Positions 8,147 to 48,820 of a stretch of DNA of 64,000 nt are shown piece after piece. Under the pieces are notes generated by a model. That model was not told where the DNA came from. It was given only the letters and a program-made list of their open reading frames with translations, and made no database searches. Source of the stretch: Armatimonadia bacterium (GTDB lineage Bacteria; Armatimonadota; Zipacnadia; Zipacnadales; JABUFB01); the NCBI GenBank assembly GCA_039679385.1, contig JBDKVB010000017.1:5399-69398 (forward strand), in the 5' to 3' direction. The translations under genes and the position numbers were made by a program. Each line of letters starts with the position of its first letter. The stretch's first letter is position 1.

Positions 8147-9223
8147 TTGCGGTGCCCACTTACCGGTACTGTGCTACTTCTGTGCGTAATTCTGAGCGTA
8201 GGTTACGCGCAGGAGGTCAAGGTCGAGTATTTCGCGGCGGACCCGGCAAAAGCGATTGACCTGAATGCTCCAGACCTCAAGAGCGAGATGCTCGATCTGG
8301 GCATTGTCATCGCGAATGTGTCGGACAATGCGGCGGTAATGGACCAGGTCCTGGCCCAGACCCGCGAGAAGCCGGTGAAAGCGGTCTGCTACGCGGTACG
8401 GATCACCAACCAGACCGGTAGCCCGATTCCGCTGAGCTACGACACCGTCAATCTTGCCTCGGGAACCTGGCAAGAGGTGGACGCTGACTTCACCAATCCC
8501 ACCTTCGACAAGGCGAGTCCGGTGACGGAGTGGGCCGGTGCGAAGTCTATCTTCGCCAAGGGCAAGACCCTTGCGGATGGCGCGACGGTGGACGGTGTGG
8601 TGTTCTACGAGCTGCCCAAGGAGACCGCGTCGACCGGCGGGATGCTGGGCGCTTCCATGGGCTCTGGGATGGACATGGGCGGCATGATGGCGGCAGCCCC
8701 GGCGCCGCAGGAGCCGCCACGCCGCATCCAGTACGTTGCGCCCGCGTCCCTGAAGGTCAAGGCTGCCGAGCCGCGTGAGGCACCGGATCTTCTGCAGGAC
8801 CTCGACCTGGAGTGGACGAGCGTTTCGTCGCTCAGCGCGCCTCCGGGTGGCAAGCCCCGGATCTTCCCGGGCATGGGCAATGTGGATGACAACACGCCCC
8901 TGCGCGTGGGGACGCCGGGTGCTCTGAAGGCCGCTCCGAAGAGCCCGGTTGAGGCCAGCGTGAACCTTGTGGGCGAGCAGCCGGCAGCCGGAATGGGTGG
9001 CATGCCTGGGATGTCGGGCATGGGCGGCAGCATGGACATGATGGGGATGCCCAGCGGAATGCCCGGGATGCCTGGAATGCCTGGTATGGGCGGCGGCATG
9101 CCGGGGATGCCCGGAGCGCCTGGTGGTCCGGAGATGGCGCCCGGTGCGCCGTCTATGCCTGGCGAGATCCCGGAAACAGGCGGAAAGCGTCCGCGTCGCC
9201 CAGGTGCGGGGCCGGAAGAATAG
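8147..9223 (+). CDS. Secreted hypothetical protein with a C-terminal Met/Gly/Pro-rich low-complexity tail (MPGMPGMPG, MGGM repeats)
   Basis: TTG start 8 nt after GGGAGG gives the signal peptide MRCPLTGTVLLLCVILSVGYA-QEV; the ATG at 8102 is the alternative. Last ~70 aa are almost only M, G, P, S, A. No recognisable domain. Confidence 0.6.
   Translation: MRCPLTGTVLLLCVILSVGYAQEVKVEYFAADPAKAIDLNAPDLKSEMLDLGIVIANVSDNAAVMDQVLAQTREKPVKAVCYAVRITNQTGSPIPLSYDTVNLASGTWQEVDADFTNPTFDKASPVTEWAGAKSIFAKGKTLADGATVDGVVFYELPKETASTGGMLGASMGSGMDMGGMMAAAPAPQEPPRRIQYVAPASLKVKAAEPREAPDLLQDLDLEWTSVSSLSAPPGGKPRIFPGMGNVDDNTPLRVGTPGALKAAPKSPVEASVNLVGEQPAAGMGGMPGMSGMGGSMDMMGMPSGMPGMPGMPGMGGGMPGMPGAPGGPEMAPGAPSMPGEIPETGGKRPRRPGAGPEE
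9049..9115 (+). repeat. 9-bp periodic tandem repeat (ATGCCnGGn) encoding MPG/MGG units
   Basis: Direct reading: agcggaatgcccgggatgcctggaatgcctggtatgggcggcggcatgccggggatgcccgga. A similar repeat (cccggaatg x2) occurs at 9541-9585 in the next gene. Confidence 0.7.
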
Positions 9224-38989: not shown

Positions 38990-40171
38990 CTACCCCACAC
39001 ATCCGGCGCCCTGTGACGGGCGGGTCACGAAGGTGCGGCCCTGAAGCTCACACCGTGAGGTATATCGTTGGGTGACCTGCGAGCAGAACCGGTCCACCTC
39101 ATCCAGGTCAACCAGTGCCAGGACGCAGCCACCGAAGCCGGCACCCATCAGCCGGGCGCCTCGGCACCCCGGCGCCTCGCAGGCGATCTCCACCATCGCA
39201 TTGAGCTCGTCGCAACTGACCTCGTAGTCGTCGCGCAGACTGGCGTGCGAGTCGAGGAGCAACCGGCCCAGACGGGCGCAGTCACCACTCCGGAGCGCCT
39301 CGACGCCCTGCATGACACGCTCGTTTTCCGTCACCACGTGGCGCGCCCGGCGGAAGGTGTCGGGGTCGAGGCTGTCGCGATGGCTCAGGAGCACCTCCAG
39401 GGAAGCGTCGCGAAGCGAGGTGACGCCCAACTGCGCGGCAGCTCGCTCGCACTGAGCCCGGCGGGCGTTGTACTCCGACTTCACCAAGCCCCGGGGCTTG
39501 CGGGTATCACACACCACAAAGACAGCTTCCTGATGGCCGAAGTCGATGGTCGTGATGTCGCGGCTGCGGCAGTCGATCAGGAGCGCTGCTCCCTCACTGC
39601 CAAAGACGCTGGAGAACTGGTCGAGGATCCCGCACTTGACGCCCACGAACTCGTTCTCGGCCCGCTGACATAGCAGGGCGAGCTCGGTCGGGTCGAGCGT
39701 GGTCTCGTTGCACTGCAGGAGAGCCTGGGCGAAGCCGATCTCGACGGCGGCTGAGGAGGCCAGTCCGGCGCCGATGGGCAGGTCGCCGATGATCGCGGCA
39801 TCCAGGCCGCCGATGGGGATTCCGATCTCCTGCAGCGCCCAAACGACGCCACGAATATAGGTACCCCACTGCCGCTCACCGTTCAGCGGCTCCAGGCCGT
39901 TGACGCTGAACTGCTCGCGTGCCCGGAAGGCCGCCGACCATACCCGAACCTGTCCATCCTCGCGGGGCAAGGCGGCCACGTAGGTGGCCTGCACGGTTGC
40001 GGCGGGAAGCACAAAGCCCTCGTTATAGTCGGTGTGCTCGCCGAGTATGTTGATGCGCCCCGGGGCACGCGCGACCTTGCACTCACGTCCGCACCGGTCC
40101 GGGAAGGCTTGGGTCCATTCATGACGGGCCAGTGCGACCAGTCCGTCCCAGGTTTGTACAGGGCCTGCCAT
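38990..40171 (-). CDS. galK: Galactokinase (GHMP kinase)
   Basis: GRINILGEHTDYNEG galactokinase signature; GHMP motif PIGAGLASSAA; C-terminal LMGAGFGG. Confidence 0.8.
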   Translation of the reverse strand: MAGPVQTWDGLVALARHEWTQAFPDRCGRECKVARAPGRINILGEHTDYNEGFVLPAATVQATYVAALPREDGQVRVWSAAFRAREQFSVNGLEPLNGERQWGTYIRGVVWALQEIGIPIGGLDAAIIGDLPIGAGLASSAAVEIGFAQALLQCNETTLDPTELALLCQRAENEFVGVKCGILDQFSSVFGSEGAALLIDCRSRDITTIDFGHQEAVFVVCDTRKPRGLVKSEYNARRAQCERAAAQLGVTSLRDASLEVLLSHRDSLDPDTFRRARHVVTENERVMQGVEALRSGDCARLGRLLLDSHASLRDDYEVSCDELNAMVEIACEAPGCRGARLMGAGFGGCVLALVDLDEVDRFCSQVTQRYTSRCELQGRTFVTRPSQGAGCVG

Positions 40172-40291
40172 CTTGGGTAATCGTATCCGGTCTCACAGAA
40201 TCAGACACACAACTAGCGGGGAATTATAGCCCGCGCCGGAAGCGCATGTCAAACCAGCGAGGACCTTCGGCGGCCTCAGGTGGTCGCGGCC

Positions 40292-40321
40292 TTGACCAAA
40301 GGGAGGGGGCTCGTCTATACT
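40292..40321 (+). promoter_or_regulatory. Near-consensus sigma70 promoter TTGACC-N18-TATACT for the ilv operon leader
   Basis: Hexamers read directly; about 8 nt upstream of the inferred leader start. Confidence 0.55.
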
Positions 40322-40328
40322 GAAGGCG

Positions 40329-40641
40329 TAGGACAATATCGTAGAAGGCTGTGACGGGGAAGAGTAGGCGTACAACGCGATCCACAGAGAGCCGGCGAGA
40401 AGGTGAGAGTGCCGGCGGTTGCGTCCGCTGAAAGTCACCCCTGAGCCACGTGGCTGAACGGTAATGCGATCGCATCCCGAGCTCAAACCGGGGTGTGGTT
40501 GGCCAGTAAGCCAGGTCGGGTACGCCCGTTATCGCGTGAGAGAGCCGTCCCGCATGGCGGGACGGAACTTGGGTGGTACCGCGGGAAGCACAACGCCTCT
40601 CGTCCCAAGCGCCTTGCTGCGCCTGGACGAGGGGCGTTTTT
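40329..40641 (+). ncRNA. T-box riboswitch leader (tRNA-sensing transcription attenuator) upstream of ilvD
   Basis: T-box consensus AACTTGGGTGGTACCGCGGGAAG at 40566-40590. Terminator hairpin acgcctctcgtcc/ggacgaggggcgt plus ttttt at 40593-40641. Stem I elements in the correct order: AG bulge AGAGAG (40386-40391), distal loop GGTGA (40402-40406), candidate specifier GAAA-GTC-A (40430-40437). Confidence 0.7.
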
Positions 40642-40761
40642 CGTATGTCCCCATTGACCGGCCTGCCACGCACGCGAGCCCCAGGGCAGAGCGTAGTGAG
40701 AACTGGCAGGCCATGCCCGGAGCGCCCATCCCGGGCCCAACAGAAGAGGAGCGACGGAATC

Positions 40762-42417
40762 ATGCGTAGCGACCAAGCCAAATCCGGTCTGACGCAGGCG
40801 CCGAGTAGGGCCTTGCTATACGCCTGCGGCTTCACGCCCGACCAGGTCAAGGGCCTCCACATCGGCATCGCCGACAGCTCGTCGGACATCGTCCCCGGGC
40901 ACGTGGGGATGCAGATGCTTGTCCAGCACGTCATGCTCGGGATCGCCGCCGGTGGTGGCGCCCCGATGCGCTTCGGCATCCCGGCAATCTGTGACGGCAT
41001 CGCCATGGGCCACAGGGGCATGTTCTACTCCCTGCCCTCCCGTGAGCTCATCGCCGACTCGGTGGAGAGCATGGCCGAGGCCCACGCCCTCGACGGTCTG
41101 GTTCTCGTCAGCAACTGCGACAAGATCACCCCGGGCATGCTGATGGCTGCGGGACGCCTCGACATCCCCTGCATCGTCGTCACCGCCGGTCCGATGTACT
41201 CCGGTCGGCTCGAAGGCCGCCGTCTGGACCTCGTCAAGGACACCTTTGAGGCTGTCGGACGGGCGCAGGCCGGCGTCATCAGCGAGGAGGACGTCGAGCG
41301 TCTTGCCATGGAAGCGTGCCCCGGCTGCGGATCGTGCCAGGGCCTTTACACCGCCAACACCATGGCCTGCGTCACCGAGGCCCTGGGTATGAGCCTGCCG
41401 GGTTGCGGTACTGCTCTCGCCGGTCAGGCCCAGAAGATGCGGATCGGCTACGACAGCGGCGTGCGCATCTGCGAGCTCGTCCGCCAGGGCATCACGACCC
41501 GCCAGATCATCACTGAGCCCGCCATCCGCAACGCCATCCGCATTGATATGGCCCTGGGCGGCTCGACGAACACCTGCCTGCACATCCCGGCCGTCGCTCA
41601 CGAGGCCGGCGTGGATATCCCGCTGGAAGTCTTCGACGAGATCAGCAAGGCTACGCCGCAGATCGCCTACCTGCGCCCCGCCGGGGAGCACATGATGGAG
41701 GACTTCCACTGGGCCGGTGGCGTTCAGGGTGCCCTGAGCGTGCTCAAGGACTCGCTGGACGATGCCCCGACCGTTAGTGGCAAGACCGTCAGGCAGCTCG
41801 TCGCCGAGGCCAGGGTCATCAACTCCGACGTTATCCGCTCGCTGGACAACGTCTACCGCCCGGAAGGCGGGATTGCCGTCCTGCGTGGCAACGTCTGCCC
41901 CGACGGCGCCGTGGTGAAGCAGTCGGCGGTAAGCCCGGATATGCGCAAGTTCCACGGCAAGGCCCTCTGCTTTGACGGCGAGGAGCAGGCCATGGAGGCC
42001 ATCATGGCCGGGAAGATCACCGACGGCTCCTGGGTCATCGTTCGCTACGAAGGCCCGAAGGGTGGTCCCGGCATGCGCGAGATGCTCAACGCGACCGCGG
42101 CCCTGACCGGCATGGGCAAGGAAAGCTCGGTAGCCCTGCTCACCGACGGACGGTTCAGTGGCGGCACCCGTGGGCCCTGCATCGGCCACATCTCCCCGGA
42201 GGCCGCTGAGGGCGGTCCGCTGGCCCTGGTCCAGGATGGCGACGAGATCAGCCTCGACCTGGATGCCCGCAAGATCGAGCTGCACGTGGACGACGCCGAG
42301 CTGGCCCGCCGCAAGGCCAACTGGGTCGCCCCGGCCCCCAAGGTCACGAAGGGCTGGCTCGGACGCTACGCACGTCTGGTCAAGAGCGCTGCGACCGGCG
42401 GAGTCATGGAGTCCTAA
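40762..42417 (+). CDS. ilvD: Dihydroxy-acid dehydratase
   Basis: 552 aa. CDKITPGM cluster-ligand motif and SGGTRGP region typical of IlvD/Edd. ATG at 40762, 9 nt after AGAAGAGGAG. Confidence 0.9.
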
Positions 42418-42551: not shown

Positions 42552-44261
42552 ATGAGCAACCGCACCTTCACCGGCGCCGATGGGATGCTGAGGGTCTTCG
42601 AAGAGGAAGGCGTGGACGTGATCTTCGGCTTCCCCGGTGGGTCCGTCATTCCCATCTACGACAAGATCTATCACGCGGTGGCCGAGGGCCGAATCCGCCA
42701 CATCCTGCCGCGCCATGAGCAGGGCGGCATCCATGCTGCCGACGGCTATGCGCGCTCGACGGGCAAGGTCGGCGTAATGGTCGCCACCAGTGGCCCCGGC
42801 GCGATGAACCTGGTGACGGGCCTGGCAACCGCCTATATGGATTCGGTACCGATCGTCGCCGTCACCGGTCAGGTCAAGACCTCGGCCATCGGCAAGGACG
42901 CCTTCCAGGAGGCCGACACGATCGGCGTCACGATGCCGGTGACCAAGCACAACTACCTGGTCAAGAGCGTGGCCGACCTTCCGGAGATCACCCGAGAGGC
43001 CTTCTACATCGCCCGCACGGGGCGTCCCGGACCGGTGGTCATCGACGTGCCCTTCGATGTCAGCGCCGGTCCCTGCAACTGGGTTGATGCCCCGCGTAAG
43101 GAGATCCCCGGCTATGCACCGCCCGGCAAGGGTGACCCGGAGGCCATCCGCAAGGCCGCCGAGATGATCTCCAAGGCGGAGAGGCCGATCCTGTACGTGG
43201 GTGGCGGAATCATCGCTGCCGACGCCGCTCCCCTGCTGAAGGAACTCGCCGAGAAGGCCAACCTCTTCGTGGTTCACACCATGATGGGCAAAGGCGCCTT
43301 CCCCGAGACCCATGACCTGTCCATGGGGATGCCGGGCATGCACGGGATGGCCTACGGGAGCCATGCGCTCCAGCACGCGGGCCTGATCATCGCCATCGGC
43401 GCACGCTTCGATGACCGCGTTACCGGCGACCCGACCAAGTTTGCACCTGAGGCCGAGGTCATCCACATCGACATCGACCCCGCCGAGATCAACAAGGTCC
43501 GGCGGGCGCAGGTTGCGATCGTCGGCAATGCTCGCCTCGTGCTCGAGGAGCTCCTGCCGCAGATCCAGCCCCGTCAGCCGGGAGAGTGGGAAGCGCACCT
43601 GCGCGAGTGGCGTGCCGCCCATCAGCTCTCCTACAACGCAGACCCGGAGGACGGCGTCTCGCCGCAGTACGTCATCGAGCAACTCTGGGAAGCGACGAGG
43701 GGCGAAGCGATCGTCTGCACCGAAGTCGGTCAGCACCAGATGTGGGCCGCGCAGTACTACCGCTGCCAGTTCCCGCGCCAGTTCATCTCCAGCGGCGGCC
43801 TCGGCACGATGGGCTTCGGCTTCCCGGCGGCCATCGGTGCGCAGGTCGGCAACCCGGGCAAGGTCTGCGTGGACATTGCCGGCGACGGCTCCATTCAGAT
43901 GTGCATCCAGGAACTGGCAACCGCCGTCATCAACAAGCTGCCGGTCAAGGTGGTCATCCTCAACAACGGCTACCTGGGGATGGTGCGCCAGTGGCAGGAC
44001 CTCTTCTACGGCAAGCGCTACAGCGGCGTTGACCTGACCGGCAACCCGGACTTCGTCAAGCTCGCCGAGGCCTACGGCGCAACGGGATACCTGGTGACAG
44101 ACAAGTCGCAGGTGCGGCCGACGCTGGAGAAGTCCCTGGAGATCACCGACCGGCCGTGCGTCATCGACGTTCGCACGCCGCCGGAAGAGAACGTGTTCCC
44201 GATGATTCCGGCCGGCGCGACCTTCGCAGACATGATGGAAACCGCGCCCGTGGGCATCTAG
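42552..44261 (+). CDS. ilvB: Acetolactate synthase (AHAS) large catalytic subunit, copy 1
   Basis: ThDP-enzyme motifs GDG...NN; HEQGGIHAADGYAR; 569 aa. Confidence 0.9.
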   Translation: MSNRTFTGADGMLRVFEEEGVDVIFGFPGGSVIPIYDKIYHAVAEGRIRHILPRHEQGGIHAADGYARSTGKVGVMVATSGPGAMNLVTGLATAYMDSVPIVAVTGQVKTSAIGKDAFQEADTIGVTMPVTKHNYLVKSVADLPEITREAFYIARTGRPGPVVIDVPFDVSAGPCNWVDAPRKEIPGYAPPGKGDPEAIRKAAEMISKAERPILYVGGGIIAADAAPLLKELAEKANLFVVHTMMGKGAFPETHDLSMGMPGMHGMAYGSHALQHAGLIIAIGARFDDRVTGDPTKFAPEAEVIHIDIDPAEINKVRRAQVAIVGNARLVLEELLPQIQPRQPGEWEAHLREWRAAHQLSYNADPEDGVSPQYVIEQLWEATRGEAIVCTEVGQHQMWAAQYYRCQFPRQFISSGGLGTMGFGFPAAIGAQVGNPGKVCVDIAGDGSIQMCIQELATAVINKLPVKVVILNNGYLGMVRQWQDLFYGKRYSGVDLTGNPDFVKLAEAYGATGYLVTDKSQVRPTLEKSLEITDRPCVIDVRTPPEENVFPMIPAGATFADMMETAPVGI

Positions 44262-44323: not shown

Positions 44324-46033
44324 ATGTCTGAGGCGACCTTCTTCGGCGCAGATGCCGTCATCAAGGTCCTGGAGAGCGAGCAGGTGGACGTCATCTTCGG
44401 CTTCCCCGGAGCGGCGGTCATCCCCATCTACGACCGCCTCTACCATGCCGAGGCCGAGGGCAGGATCCACCACGTACTCACTCGTCATGAGCAGGGCGCC
44501 GTCCATGCTGCGGACGGCTATGCGCGGGCGACCGGCAAGGTCGGCGTATGCATCGCCACCAGCGGCCCCGGCGCGATGAACCTGATAACCGGCATCGCCA
44601 CGGCCTACATGGACTCGGTTCCCCTGGTCGCCCTTACCGGCCAGGTGCGCACCGGGATCATCGGTAAGGACGCCTTCCAGGAGGCCGATACCTTCGGCGT
44701 CACGATGCCGATTACCAAACACAACTACCTGGTGAAGGATGCCGGCAGACTCGCGGAGGTGCTGCGCGAAGCCTTCTACATCGCTCGCACAGGCCGGCCG
44801 GGACCGGTGCTGGTCGATATCCCCGTGGATCTCACCAACACTCCTTGCGAGTGGCACGAGGATGGGCACAAGCAGATTCCCGGCTACAACCCGCCGGGCA
44901 AGGGTGACCCCGAGGCACTCCGCCAGGCAGCCGAGCTGATCTCGAAGGCCGAGCGCCCGGTTCTGTACGTCGGCGGCGGCGTGATCGCCTCCGGCGCGTC
45001 AGACCTCGTGCGGCAACTCGCCGAGAAGGCCAGCCTGTACACGGTGCACACCCTGATGGCGAAGGGCGCCTTCCCTGAGGACCACGAGCTATCCATGGGC
45101 ATGCCCGGGATGCACGGGACCGCCTACGCCACTCACGCGATGCATCACGCGGGGCTCATCATCTCGGTCGGCGCACGCTTCGACGACCGTGTCACCGGCG
45201 ACCCGAGCAAGTTCGCTCCTGAGGCCGAGGTCATCCACATCGATATCGACCCCGCCGAGATCAACAAGGTCCGTCGGGCACGGGTCGGAATCGTCGGAGA
45301 CGCCCGCGAAGTCCTGGAGGAGCTCTTGCCGCTCGTGAAGCCGCGCCGACCTGGTGAGTGGGAAGCGCACCTCAAGGAGTGGCGTGCCGATCATCCGCTC
45401 AGCTACAACGCCGATCCGGAGGACGGCGTCTCGCCGCAGTACGTCATCGAGCAACTCTGGGAAGCCACGAAGGGCGAAGCCGTCGTCTGTACCGAGGTCG
45501 GTCAGCACCAGATGTGGGCCGCCCAGTACTACCGATGCCGATACCCGCGCCAGTTCATCAGCAGCGGCGGCCTGGGGACGATGGGCTATGGGTTTCCCGC
45601 AGCCATCGGCGCACAGATCGGGTGCCCGGACAGGACCGTGGTAGACATCGCCGGTGACGGTTCGATCCAGATGTGCATCCAGGAACTGGCGACCGCCGTC
45701 ATCCAGAAGCTGCCGGTCAAGATTGTCATTCTCAACAACGGCTACCTGGGAATGGTGCGGCAGTGGCAGGACCTGTTCTATGGCAAGCGCTATAGTGGCG
45801 TCGACCTGAGCGGCAATCCGGATTTCGTCAAGCTTGCCGAGGCCTACAGTGCTGCCGGTTTCCTGGTCACCGACAAGGCGCAAGTGCGGCCGACGCTGGA
45901 CAAGGCGATGCAGATCACGGATCGGCCCTGCCTGATCGACGTTCACACGCCGCCCGAGGAGAACGTGTTCCCGATGATCCCGGCCGGCAAGACCTTTGAG
46001 GACATGATGGAGACCGCCCCGGTCGGGGTGTAG
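44324..46033 (+). CDS. ilvB: Acetolactate synthase large subunit, tandem paralogue (copy 2)
   Basis: 569 aa. About 78-80% amino-acid identity to copy 1 by eye, with long identical nucleotide runs (for example gaggacggcgtctcgccgcagtacgtcatcgagcaactctgggaagc in both). Confidence 0.9.
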   Translation: MSEATFFGADAVIKVLESEQVDVIFGFPGAAVIPIYDRLYHAEAEGRIHHVLTRHEQGAVHAADGYARATGKVGVCIATSGPGAMNLITGIATAYMDSVPLVALTGQVRTGIIGKDAFQEADTFGVTMPITKHNYLVKDAGRLAEVLREAFYIARTGRPGPVLVDIPVDLTNTPCEWHEDGHKQIPGYNPPGKGDPEALRQAAELISKAERPVLYVGGGVIASGASDLVRQLAEKASLYTVHTLMAKGAFPEDHELSMGMPGMHGTAYATHAMHHAGLIISVGARFDDRVTGDPSKFAPEAEVIHIDIDPAEINKVRRARVGIVGDAREVLEELLPLVKPRRPGEWEAHLKEWRADHPLSYNADPEDGVSPQYVIEQLWEATKGEAVVCTEVGQHQMWAAQYYRCRYPRQFISSGGLGTMGYGFPAAIGAQIGCPDRTVVDIAGDGSIQMCIQELATAVIQKLPVKIVILNNGYLGMVRQWQDLFYGKRYSGVDLSGNPDFVKLAEAYSAAGFLVTDKAQVRPTLDKAMQITDRPCLIDVHTPPEENVFPMIPAGKTFEDMMETAPVGV

Positions 46034-46077: not shown

Positions 46078-46563
46078 ATGAAACACACCATCTCAGCCAG
46101 GGTCGAGAACAAGCCGGGCGTGTTGGCGCGGATGTCCGGGCTGTTCGCTCGCCGTGGCTTCAACATCGACAGCCTGGCCGTCAGTACCACCGAGGACCCG
46201 GGCGTGTCTCGCATGACGATCACGGTCACCGGCGACGAGTTCACGCTGGAGCAGATCTGCAACCAACTGGTCAAGCTAGTGGACGTAATCGAGGTCGTTG
46301 ACCACACCAACGACGCCTACGTGGACCGCGAACTGTGCTTGTGCAAGGTCTGCTGCGACGCCCAGACTCGCCACGACATCATCGACCTGTGCAACATCTT
46401 CCGCGCGGACGTGGTCGATGTCGGCAACGAGACCCTGATCCTGCAGATCACCGGCGACGAGGACAAGATTGACGCCTTCGTTCGCACGATGGAGCAGTTC
46501 GGTGTCCGTGAGATGGTCCGCACGGGCAAGATTCTCCTGGTCCGAGGAGTGCAGCGAACCTAG
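46078..46563 (+). CDS. ilvN: Acetolactate synthase small regulatory subunit (ACT domain)
   Basis: MKHTISARVENKPGVLARMSGLFARRGFNIDSLAV motif. Confidence 0.85.
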   Translation: MKHTISARVENKPGVLARMSGLFARRGFNIDSLAVSTTEDPGVSRMTITVTGDEFTLEQICNQLVKLVDVIEVVDHTNDAYVDRELCLCKVCCDAQTRHDIIDLCNIFRADVVDVGNETLILQITGDEDKIDAFVRTMEQFGVREMVRTGKILLVRGVQRT

Positions 46564-46588
46564 GGTAGTCGACCGGAGGTGTTCGGCC

Positions 46589-47335
46589 ATGGCTCCCGGC
46601 GTCGTCCGCTTCTGTGTTGTGTTGTTGTGTTGTCTGGTGACCGTCAGCTCATGGGCGCAGCTCGGTTACCAGGACCGTCGCGAGGACATGCTGGTACGGG
46701 TCGACTTCAGCCGGTCGCAGGTGAAGGACTGTCTGCTCACGGGTGCCACCTTCACCTCAACGAACCTGCGGGAGGCCGGCTTCGAGCGCAGCGACCTCAG
46801 CTCGGCGAAGCTGCGGAACTGCAAACTCGACGGCGTCAGCCTCACAGAGGTGGCCGGTGACGGTCTCCAGGCCCAGCGGCTGACGCTGACCAGGCCGAAG
46901 CTCAGTAGCAGCTCTCTCACGGCGCTGGAGTGGGACTCAGGGACCTTGAGCGGACGGCTGCAGAGCATTGAAATCACGGGGCTGAAGTTGTATCGTTGCG
47001 AGAGCCGCGATCTGCTCCTTGACCACCTGACCTGCCGCGACCTGGTGGCCACGGGATTGGATATCGACGGGCTGCGCGCCTCGGACTGCGAGCTCTCCGA
47101 CGTGCAACTCAGCAACGTACAGATGGCCGGTTCACGCTGGTCGCGAGTCGAAGCGCAGCGCTCGCGCCTCGAGGACGTGGAGCTGCAGGACAGCCGACTC
47201 GAGGACTGCGACCTGTCCTATGTCCGGGCCGAAGGCTGCGACCTAAGTCATGCGCGGTTCGACAGGTGCGACCTCCGGGGCCTGGTCATCAACGGCTACG
47301 ACATCGAGGAGCTGATCCGTCGGGCCGGAAGGTAG
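46589..47335 (+). CDS. Secreted pentapeptide-repeat protein
   Basis: Signal peptide MAPGVVRFCVVLLCCLVTVSSWA-QL, then A(D/N)LxxA(D/N)Lxx-type 5-residue periodicity throughout (RSDLSSAKLRNCKLDGVSLTEVAGD...). Start at 46589, 6 nt after GGAGGTG. Confidence 0.75.
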   Translation: MAPGVVRFCVVLLCCLVTVSSWAQLGYQDRREDMLVRVDFSRSQVKDCLLTGATFTSTNLREAGFERSDLSSAKLRNCKLDGVSLTEVAGDGLQAQRLTLTRPKLSSSSLTALEWDSGTLSGRLQSIEITGLKLYRCESRDLLLDHLTCRDLVATGLDIDGLRASDCELSDVQLSNVQMAGSRWSRVEAQRSRLEDVELQDSRLEDCDLSYVRAEGCDLSHARFDRCDLRGLVINGYDIEELIRRAGR

Positions 47336-47765: not shown

Positions 47766-48764
47766 ATGGCCGCAAAGATGTTCTATGACGACGATGCTGA
47801 CCTGTCACTGCTTGATGGGAAAAAGGTAGCCATCATTGGCTACGGTATCCAGGGCCGGGCGCAGTCCATGTGCCTGCGGGACAGCGGCGTAGACGTCATC
47901 ATTGCAGAGCTCAAGGGCACGCCGAACTACGAGCAGGCTGTCGCCGACGGCTGGGACATTCAGGACACCGAGAGCGCTGCCAAGGCCGCCGACATGATCC
48001 AGGTTCTCACCCAGGATCACCTGCAGGCCATGGTATTCAAGAACTTCATCCAGCCGAACCTGTCCGAGGGCAACGCACTGATCTTCTCGCACGGGTTCAA
48101 CATCCGCTACGGCGGCATCGTCCCGCCGGCCTTCGTCGACGTGTTCATGATCGCCCCGAAGGGCCCGGGCGCACTGGTCCGCGAGTGCTACGTCAACGAC
48201 ACCGGCGTCCCCTCCCTCGTCGCAGTGGAGCAGGACTTCACCGGCAAGGCTCTGGACTATGCCCTGGCCTACGCCAAGGCTCTCAAGGCCACTAAGGCCG
48301 GCGTCATCCAGACCACCTTCACCGAAGAGACCGAGACTGACCTCTTCGGCGAGCAGGCCGTGCTGTGCGGCGGCGTCTCCGAGCTCATCACCGCCGGCTT
48401 CGACACTCTCGTTGCCGCGGGCTACCAGCCGGAGATCGCGTACTTCGAGGTCTGCCACGAGCTCAAGCTCATCATGGACCTCATCTACAACTACGGCATC
48501 CAGGGCATGCGCGAGCGCGTGTCCGACACCGCCGCCTACGGCGACATCAGCCGTGGCAAGCGGATCGTCACCGACGCAACCCGTGCCGAGATGGCCAAGA
48601 TGCTGCGCGAGATCCAGGACGGCTCCTTCGCCAAGGAGTGGACGCTGGAGAACATGACCGGCCGCACGGTCTACAACAGCCTCCTCAAGGAGGGCGAGAA
48701 GTCGCAGATCGAGGAAGTCGGTTCCCGCCTGCGCGCCATGATGCCCTTCCTGAAGAAGGGTTAG
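47766..48764 (+). CDS. ilvC: Ketol-acid reductoisomerase
   Basis: [22 protein letters not shown] Rossmann motif. Class I KARI length (332 aa). GGGAGG RBS. Confidence 0.9.
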
Positions 48765-48789
48765 TCAGTCCAACCACGAGGCACCAAAA

Positions 48790-48820
48790 GGCCGAGGGCA
48801 CAGTCGCCCTCGGCCTTTTT
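48790..48820. terminator. Intrinsic terminator (10-bp stem GGCCGAGGGC/GCCCTCGGCC, loop acagtc, ttttt), probably bidirectional for ilvC and the convergent CBS gene
   Basis: Perfect hairpin flanked by AAAA on one side and TTTTT on the other. Confidence 0.7.

Follow-up and report, generated by a model that had tools for sequence, protein, structure and literature searches.

Which signal controls the branched-chain amino acid genes that follow the 590-nt gap between galK (ATG at 40171, minus strand) and ilvD (ATG at 40762), at which level of expression does it act, and what does it say about a host with a GC content of 65%? These questions are raised by one locus in a 64-kb stretch of bacterial DNA, which was analysed as a whole and is referred to below as the window. 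In a first-pass annotation made from the sequence alone, the gap had been read as the leader of an ilv operon, containing a T-box riboswitch with an intrinsic terminator and a candidate Val (GUC) specifier. That reading is examined here through the family membership and architecture of the leader, its conservation among related loci, the structures that compete within it, the identity of its specifier codon, and the operon that it precedes.

Family membership and orthologous leaders

The whole window was scanned against all 4227 Rfam families at the gathering threshold, and the sole match was the T-box leader family RF00230, the model against which the first-pass annotation had asked for the leader to be checked. 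With 116.2 bits (E 5e-25), the match exceeds the gathering score of 93, and it covers model positions 1-219 of 219 without truncation. On sequence and predicted structure, segment 40342-40610 is confirmed as a class I (transcriptional) T-box riboswitch, a type of regulator whose mechanism is already well known.

To place this leader among its relatives, IlvD homologues of graded identity were found, their contigs were fetched, and the regions upstream of ilvD were scanned with Rfam (the loci are named below by handles beginning with L). A T-box was present upstream of ilvD in every distinct relative fetched, amounting to ten leaders whose IlvD proteins are 83-70% identical to that of the window: L114/115 (83%, 97.8 bits), L117-119 (81%, 107.3 bits), L120 (80%, 103.6 bits), L121 (79%, 73.5 bits, with a 108-nt insertion in Stem II), L122 (79%, 88.9 bits), L124/125 (78%, 109.8 bits), L126 (74%, 70.4 bits), L128 (71%, 77.6 bits), L129 (71%, 110.9 bits), and L127 (70%, 93.3 bits). 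Because of insertions in Stem II or past the F-box, four of them (L121, L122, L126, and L128) score below the gathering score, yet they are clearly orthologous by alignment, with E values of 3e-13 or better. A scan of genome contigs for IlvD returned distant loci only (65% identity or less), among which only L025 carries a T-box core upstream of ilvD. A search of metagenome contigs with a specifier-free leader pattern, GCTGAAANNNACCCCTGAGCC, gave 31 matches, all 31 of them without a T-box core within 450 nt, and these were discarded as chance occurrences.

Architecture of the leader

The elements of the leader and of the genes around it are collected in Table 1. Within Stem I, the alignment to RF00230 identifies a K-turn with its GA motif, in which UGUGAC (40350-40355) faces UGA (40442-40444), and a specifier loop S-turn of the AGUA/GAA type, whose two halves are AAGAGUA (40360-40366) and GAAAGUCA (40430-40437). 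The AG bulge, AGAGAG, occupies 40386-40391, and the distal loop extends over 40398-40409 with GGUGA inside it at 40402-40406. Three of these elements had already been named as Stem I hallmarks, namely AGAGAG, GGTGA, and, on the 3' side, the DNA motif GAAAGTCA at 40430-40437; each lies where it had been placed and aligns to the family consensus. A consensus structure computed with RNAalifold from eight leaders contains 27 pairs in Stem I, ten of which keep pairing through two-sided changes, and its helices agree with those derived from the RF00230 alignment.

The apical part of Stem II (about 40460-40500 in the window) carries a lineage-variable insertion, whose length is 40 nt in the window and between about 5 and 108 nt across the orthologs; an additional insertion of 28-34 nt past the F-box occurs in L127 and L129. 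The Stem III hairpin appears in the minimum free energy fold, and the columns of Stem IIA, the F-box, and Stem III are invariant in the ortholog alignment.

Table 1. Features of the T-box leader, the operon that follows it, and the neighbouring galK gene (window coordinates)
Feature	Coordinates	Strand	Evidence
galK, galactokinase	38990..40171	minus	NCBIfam
Sigma-70-type promoter, TTGACC-N18-TATACT	40292..40321	plus	consensus scan, 10/12 consensus matches
T-box leader RNA (RF00230), full length: Stem I, Stem II, Stem IIA/F-box, Stem III, antiterminator	40342..40610	plus	Rfam match
Stem I	40347..40447	plus	alignment to RF00230 consensus
Specifier codon GUC (Val), proposed	40434..40436	plus	RF00230 register and ortholog conservation
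Stem II, with S-turn elements GAAC ... AGUA and a 40-nt apical insertion relative to the model	40449..40515	plus	RF00230 alignment
Stem IIA CGG/CCG (40517-40528), F-box CCCGUUA (40525-40531), linker, Stem III (about 40544-40565)	40517..40565	plus	RF00230 alignment
T-box sequence and antiterminator	40569..40608	plus	RF00230 alignment and folding
Intrinsic terminator: 14-bp stem (40592-40605 with 40625-40638) and U tract (40637-40641)	40592..40641	plus	folding and terminator scan
ilvD, dihydroxy-acid dehydratase, first regulated gene	40762..42417	plus	TIGR00110, 723.8 bits (cut-off 618)
ilvB, acetolactate synthase large subunit, copy 1	42552..44261	plus	TIGR00118, 777 bits (cut-off 538)
ilvB', acetolactate synthase large subunit, copy 2	44324..46033	plus	NCBIfam; 79% identical to copy 1
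ilvN, acetolactate synthase small subunit	46078..46563	plus	TIGR00119, 206 bits (cut-off 57)
Pentapeptide-repeat protein gene (as listed)	46469..47335	plus	PF00805, PF13599
Small hydrophobic ORF, about 117 aa	47362..47715	plus	conserved in relatives
ilvC, ketol-acid reductoisomerase, last gene of the unit	47766..48764	plus	TIGR00465, 415.8 bits (cut-off 226)
Operon-end intrinsic terminator, 14-bp stem then T run	48786..48819	plus	terminator scan

Promoter and intergenic region

The promoter that had been proposed in the gap was recovered by a consensus scan at the expected positions, with the -35 hexamer TTGACC at 40292-40297, the -10 hexamer TATACT at 40316-40321, and a spacer of 18 nt. Two promoter-like sites were detected in the 750-nt region scanned, compared with 0.1 expected from shuffles, and a counterpart of the leader promoter (TTGACC-N17/18-TATACT, with TATAAT in L122) stands at the matching relative position in five of the six close orthologous leaders, L121 being the one in which no promoter was detected at that position. 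The transcription start is predicted at about 40328-40330, some 7 nt past TATACT. The minus strand of the same gap carries a perfect sigma-70 consensus, TTGACA-N18-TATAAT (12/12), at 40252..40223. This site points towards galK and is arranged divergently to the T-box promoter, with about 40 nt between their -35 boxes.

The terminator/antiterminator switch

The T-box sequence TTGGGTGGTACCGCGGGAAG, which the earlier reading had called canonical, is found at 40569-40588 as described there. In the overlapping segment AACUUGGGUGGUACCGCG (40566-40583), a 7-nt bulge, UGGUACC (40574-40580), begins with UGGN, as the family requires, and is near-invariant in the orthologs, position 6 of the bulge being A in L120 and L124. 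The antiterminator is built from helix A1, in which UGGG (40570-40573) pairs with CCCA (40604-40607), and helix A2, in which GCGGG (40581-40585) pairs with CUCGU (40599-40603); its computed energy is -16.6 kcal/mol when 40566-40612 is folded alone and -13.0 for a shorter segment. The arms of the terminator are ACGCCTCTCGTCC (40593-40605) and GGACGAGGGGCGT (40625-40637), and segment 40590-40645, folded alone, reaches -32.7 kcal/mol, the stem being followed by UUUUU.

Because both structures use strand 40599-40607, the antiterminator and the terminator are mutually exclusive. The alternative pairing suggested by the first-pass annotation was thus reproduced in the folding analysis, in which one strand serves as the 3' side of the antiterminator and as the 5' side of the terminator. 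When the full sequence is folded, the terminator outcompetes the antiterminator, which in this folding model is the "off" state that a class I T-box is expected to adopt by default. The mutually exclusive arrangement is kept in seven other leaders; the antiterminator has energies of -12.8 to -16.3 kcal/mol in all six close orthologs, and an overlapping terminator (-21 to -33 kcal/mol; -21 to -31 for the six close ones) with a U tract is present in all orthologs.

Taken by itself, a terminator would fit any form of attenuation, including ribosome-mediated attenuation through a leader peptide, of the type known for the enterobacterial ilvGMEDA and ilvBN operons, in which case the resemblance to a T-box would be incidental. 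The attenuators of that type are marked by a short, translated, ILV-rich ORF lying over alternative hairpins, and no ILV-rich leader ORF was found in 40322-40765: the longest leader ORFs contain 8-25% ILV, have no runs of these residues, and overlap the T-box helices. Amino-acid leader families gave no Rfam match even at E <= 1, and the score of the T-box model is far above chance. The probability of a leader-peptide mechanism is, on this evidence, close to negligible, and the proposal of tRNA-mediated attenuation stands.

The level at which the switch acts also has to be considered. The genome has 65% GC, and the best-known high-GC T-boxes, those of the actinobacterial ileS genes, regulate translation (PMC7778990, PMC11297988); a class II-like T-box of this translational kind would control the access of ribosomes to ilvD. 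The window leader resembles the ileS leaders in its high-GC host and in the sensing, here predicted, of a branched-chain aminoacyl-tRNA. In the ileS leaders, however, Stem I is truncated and the Shine-Dalgarno sequence is sequestered, whereas the window leader has a full-length Stem I with AG bulge and distal loop, and its competing helix is not a Shine-Dalgarno-occluding sequestrator but a 14-bp GC-rich hairpin followed by UUUUU. The Shine-Dalgarno sequence of ilvD, GAGGAG, lies about 105 nt past the terminator, outside the competing helix, which argues for control of transcription and not of ribosome binding. Furthermore, the U tract and the ilvD ATG are separated by 54 to 293 nt in the six close orthologs, and by entire genes in L126 and L127. 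Translational control is therefore very improbable for this leader. The 120-nt spacer between the terminator and ilvD shows only a moderate gain in folding over shuffled sequences (z = -2.2), without conservation of length.

Specifier codon and tRNA identity

The specifier codon of a T-box is read from the 3' half of the specifier loop. In the RF00230 register, this half of the window leader reads GAA-A-GUC-A, its last base being the purine A40437, after which the closing helix CCCC (40438-40441) begins. The same triplet, GUC, occupies the specifier position in all 11 distinct leaders upstream of ilvD (that of the window and the ten others, spanning 100-70% IlvD identity). The preceding base is variable (A, C, or U), with one additional base ahead of GUC in L128, and a purine, A or G, always follows. 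The ortholog comparison thus lends strong support to the Val specifier that had been advanced as a candidate. Val is also consistent with the amino-acid class of the downstream genes ilvD, ilvB, ilvN, and ilvC. In the Atrimonadaceae leader L025, the equivalent position upstream of ilvD carries CUC (Leu), indicating that the specifier position is free to differ between lineages, and this makes the constancy of GUC within the clade informative. GUC also agrees with the reported bias of Val T-boxes towards specifiers whose last base is C or A (PMC7778990).

The specifier loop sequence GAAAGUCA contains AGU and UCA in addition to GUC, and a register shifted by one base would have the T-box sense another tRNA, through AGU (Ser) on the upstream side or UCA (Ser) on the downstream side. 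The upstream register is excluded because its triplet is not conserved across the orthologs, where it reads AGU, CGU, or UGU (Ser, Arg, or Cys). The downstream register reads UCA or UCG, both Ser, and conservation alone is compatible with it; however, in this register the closing helix would follow the codon directly, lacking the intervening purine of the family consensus GAA-n-NNN-R-CCC. In either shifted register, the sensed amino acid would be at odds with the regulated genes, which make Val/Ile and not Ser. Bacterial tRNA-Ser has G73, which would favour UGGC in the T-box bulge over the UGGU observed. Family geometry, the pathway, and the UGGU bulge are the grounds, none of them experimental, on which the downstream register is rejected, and the sensing of another tRNA through a shifted register is considered highly unlikely compared with the reading of GUC.

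The UGGU bulge fits the discriminator base A73, as in bacterial tRNA-Val. A73 is common to tRNA-Ile and tRNA-Leu, so that the bulge alone does not select Val. No tRNA-Val gene was found in the window or in the 16 fetched loci, and the window and the fetched loci of the clade are devoid of tRNA genes altogether. In L121, ARAGORN reported a 92-nt "tRNA-Gln (CTG)" at 503-594, between the T-box terminator and ilvD, which had no Rfam tRNA match at E <= 0.001 and is probably spurious, the sequence there being GC-rich and repetitive.

The regulated operon

The genes downstream of the leader belong to the shared Val/Ile pathway. The order ilvD-ilvB-ilvB'-ilvN-ilvC given by the first-pass annotation holds in that all five genes are confirmed by NCBIfam, but two ORFs located between ilvN and ilvC had been missed. 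The first encodes a pentapeptide-repeat protein. As listed, this ORF overlaps ilvN, and the proteins of relatives are about 230 aa long; its true start is therefore probably further downstream, near 46640. The second, small and hydrophobic, has no Pfam or NCBIfam match but is 43% identical (E 2e-30) to a 114-aa ORF at the equivalent position of L122. A pair of ORFs stands at the equivalent site between ilvN and ilvC in L122/L123 and L124, with pentapeptide Pfam matches in L122/L123 only.

The transcription unit is most simply read as ilvD-ilvB-ilvB'-ilvN-(pentapeptide-repeat gene)-(small membrane ORF)-ilvC on one predicted transcript extending from about 40329 to about 48825, since no convincing internal promoter or plus-strand terminator was found between 42300 and 48780 and an intrinsic terminator lies past ilvC. 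A permissive Rfam scan for a second regulatory RNA in the operon gave only a sub-threshold sRNA match, located on the operon terminator.

Several variations on this organization were observed among the relatives. In L118 and L119, the second copy of the acetolactate synthase large subunit is placed after ilvN, unlike the tandem ilvB-ilvB' of the window, and a duplicated ilvB seems common in the clade. L117 and L118, which encode identical IlvD proteins, differ by about 760 bp in the spacer between ilvD and ilvB, which spans 7653-8725 in L117 and 7653-7965 in L118 (the ilvB starts being at 8725 and 7965, respectively), a difference that points to an indel polymorphism within the operon. In two more distant relatives, a gene stands between the Val T-box and ilvD, namely a Fic-domain gene in L126 (6595-7767) and an ORF of 152 aa without a Pfam match in L127 (7455-7913); if co-transcribed, both would come under tRNA-Val control.

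Proposed mechanism

Taken with the register and the switch described above, the leader is very probably a class I T-box specific for tRNA-Val that turns on the ilvD-led operon when tRNA-Val is uncharged; the binding of the tRNA, its identity, and the regulatory outcome are what we infer from the sequence comparisons. Following initiation about 7 nt past TATACT, the nascent leader would present the GUC specifier of Stem I to the GAC anticodon of tRNA-Val, while the AG bulge and the distal loop would stack on the elbow of the tRNA. If the bound tRNA-Val is uncharged, its free 3' end (A73-C-C-A) would pair with UGGU in the T-box bulge, and this pairing would stabilise the weaker antiterminator, allowing RNA polymerase to read through into ilvD-ilvB-ilvB'-ilvN, the two ORFs, and ilvC. 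With charged tRNA-Val, the stronger terminator and its U tract would form, and transcription would stop at about 40641.

Comparison with known T-boxes

T-boxes that sense Val and precede ilv genes are known from Clostridia, where they are listed for "valS; ilvDB" in C. phytofermentans and "valS; ilvBH1" in C. beijerinckii, and further clostridial Val T-box targets are "ilvC" and "ilvB1H2E1" (RegPrecise survey; PMC3766115, Additional file 2). The RNA family, the Val specificity, the pathway, and the ilvD-ilvB order at the head of the operon are shared with the window. Differences exist in the host, which is affiliated with Armatimonadota and has 65% GC, in contrast to the low-GC Firmicutes; in the length of the operon, which exceeds that of the clostridial ones and includes two ilvB copies, ilvN, two extra ORFs, and ilvC; and in Stem II, which, unlike that of the clostridial Val-ilv T-boxes, has a large insertion of variable length.

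The ilv-leu (ilvBHC-leuABCD) leader of B. subtilis, described by Marta et al. (1996) as cited in PMC2494555, is likewise a class I transcriptional terminator/antiterminator switch ahead of a branched-chain biosynthesis operon. It uses a CUC specifier (Leu) and its operon includes leu genes, whereas the window has GUC (Val), lacks leu genes in the operon, and has ilvD first. A third case is provided by L025 on the Atrimonadaceae chromosome CP184673.1, where a full-length RF00230 match of 130.9 bits (2726-2942) lies directly upstream of ilvD. Like the window, L025 combines a full-length T-box and a terminator upstream of an ilvD orthologue (59% identity), but it reads CUC (Leu), belongs to another phylum, and has a shorter leader without the Stem II insertion. 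Its genome is of Atribacterota type, another phylum outside the classical T-box list.

Host lineage and phyletic distribution

An IlvD protein identical to that of the window is encoded on the NCBI metagenome-assembled genome GCA_021372855.1. The organism-tagged IlvD homologues (about 65-71% identity) are all labelled Armatimonadota, Armatimonadia, Armatimonadetes, or "candidate division WS1", and the organism-tagged SMC homologues (47% identity and below) all carry Armatimonadota-type labels. Judged by these homologues, the window is affiliated with a lineage in or near Armatimonadota and not with Firmicutes. The use of the T-box itself to help place this high-GC organism, as had been suggested, proves weak: with an Armatimonadota-affiliated host, the T-box alone does not place the genome among the Firmicutes or the other classical T-box lineages, and it is IlvD and SMC that point to Armatimonadota.

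In the surveys of 2008 and 2013, T-boxes were recorded in Firmicutes, Actinobacteria, Chloroflexi, Deinococcus-Thermus, and a few delta-proteobacteria, and Armatimonadota are absent from both (PMC2494555, PMC3766115). The non-Firmicute T-boxes tabulated in the later survey concern only aminoacyl-tRNA synthetase genes and trpB (PMC3766115), and those of two delta-proteobacteria precede leuA (PMC2494555, PMC3766115). A literature search for T-box together with Armatimonad* found no such report among the papers searched, while the Rfam full alignments and TBDB, with its 23,535 T-boxes, may hold such sequences. The phyletic aspect is accordingly the only mildly novel point of this analysis, and the understanding of the mechanism is unchanged.

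For the annotation of an uncultured lineage, the value of the result lies in the assignment of a regulator, a proposed effector (uncharged tRNA-Val), and a transcription unit to its ilv operon, together with the placement of two previously unannotated ORFs, one encoding a pentapeptide-repeat protein and the other a small membrane protein, in a predicted transcript with valine biosynthesis genes. The pairing of a Val T-box with ilvD appears to be widely conserved in Armatimonadota-type genomes, down to an IlvD identity of 70%. Whether the Val (GUC) T-box upstream of ilvD is ancient and vertically inherited across much of Armatimonadota and their "WS1"-labelled relatives is, in our estimation, an evenly balanced matter. 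The consistent set of 11 high-GC, full-length Val T-boxes of Armatimonadota type, with their large and variable Stem II insertions, could feed T-box databases and tests of T-box origin, for which the question is whether T-boxes arose before the divergence of Firmicutes or spread by transfer; if the feature is indeed old and vertically kept, it would bring another Terrabacteria phylum and a biosynthetic regulon to that question.
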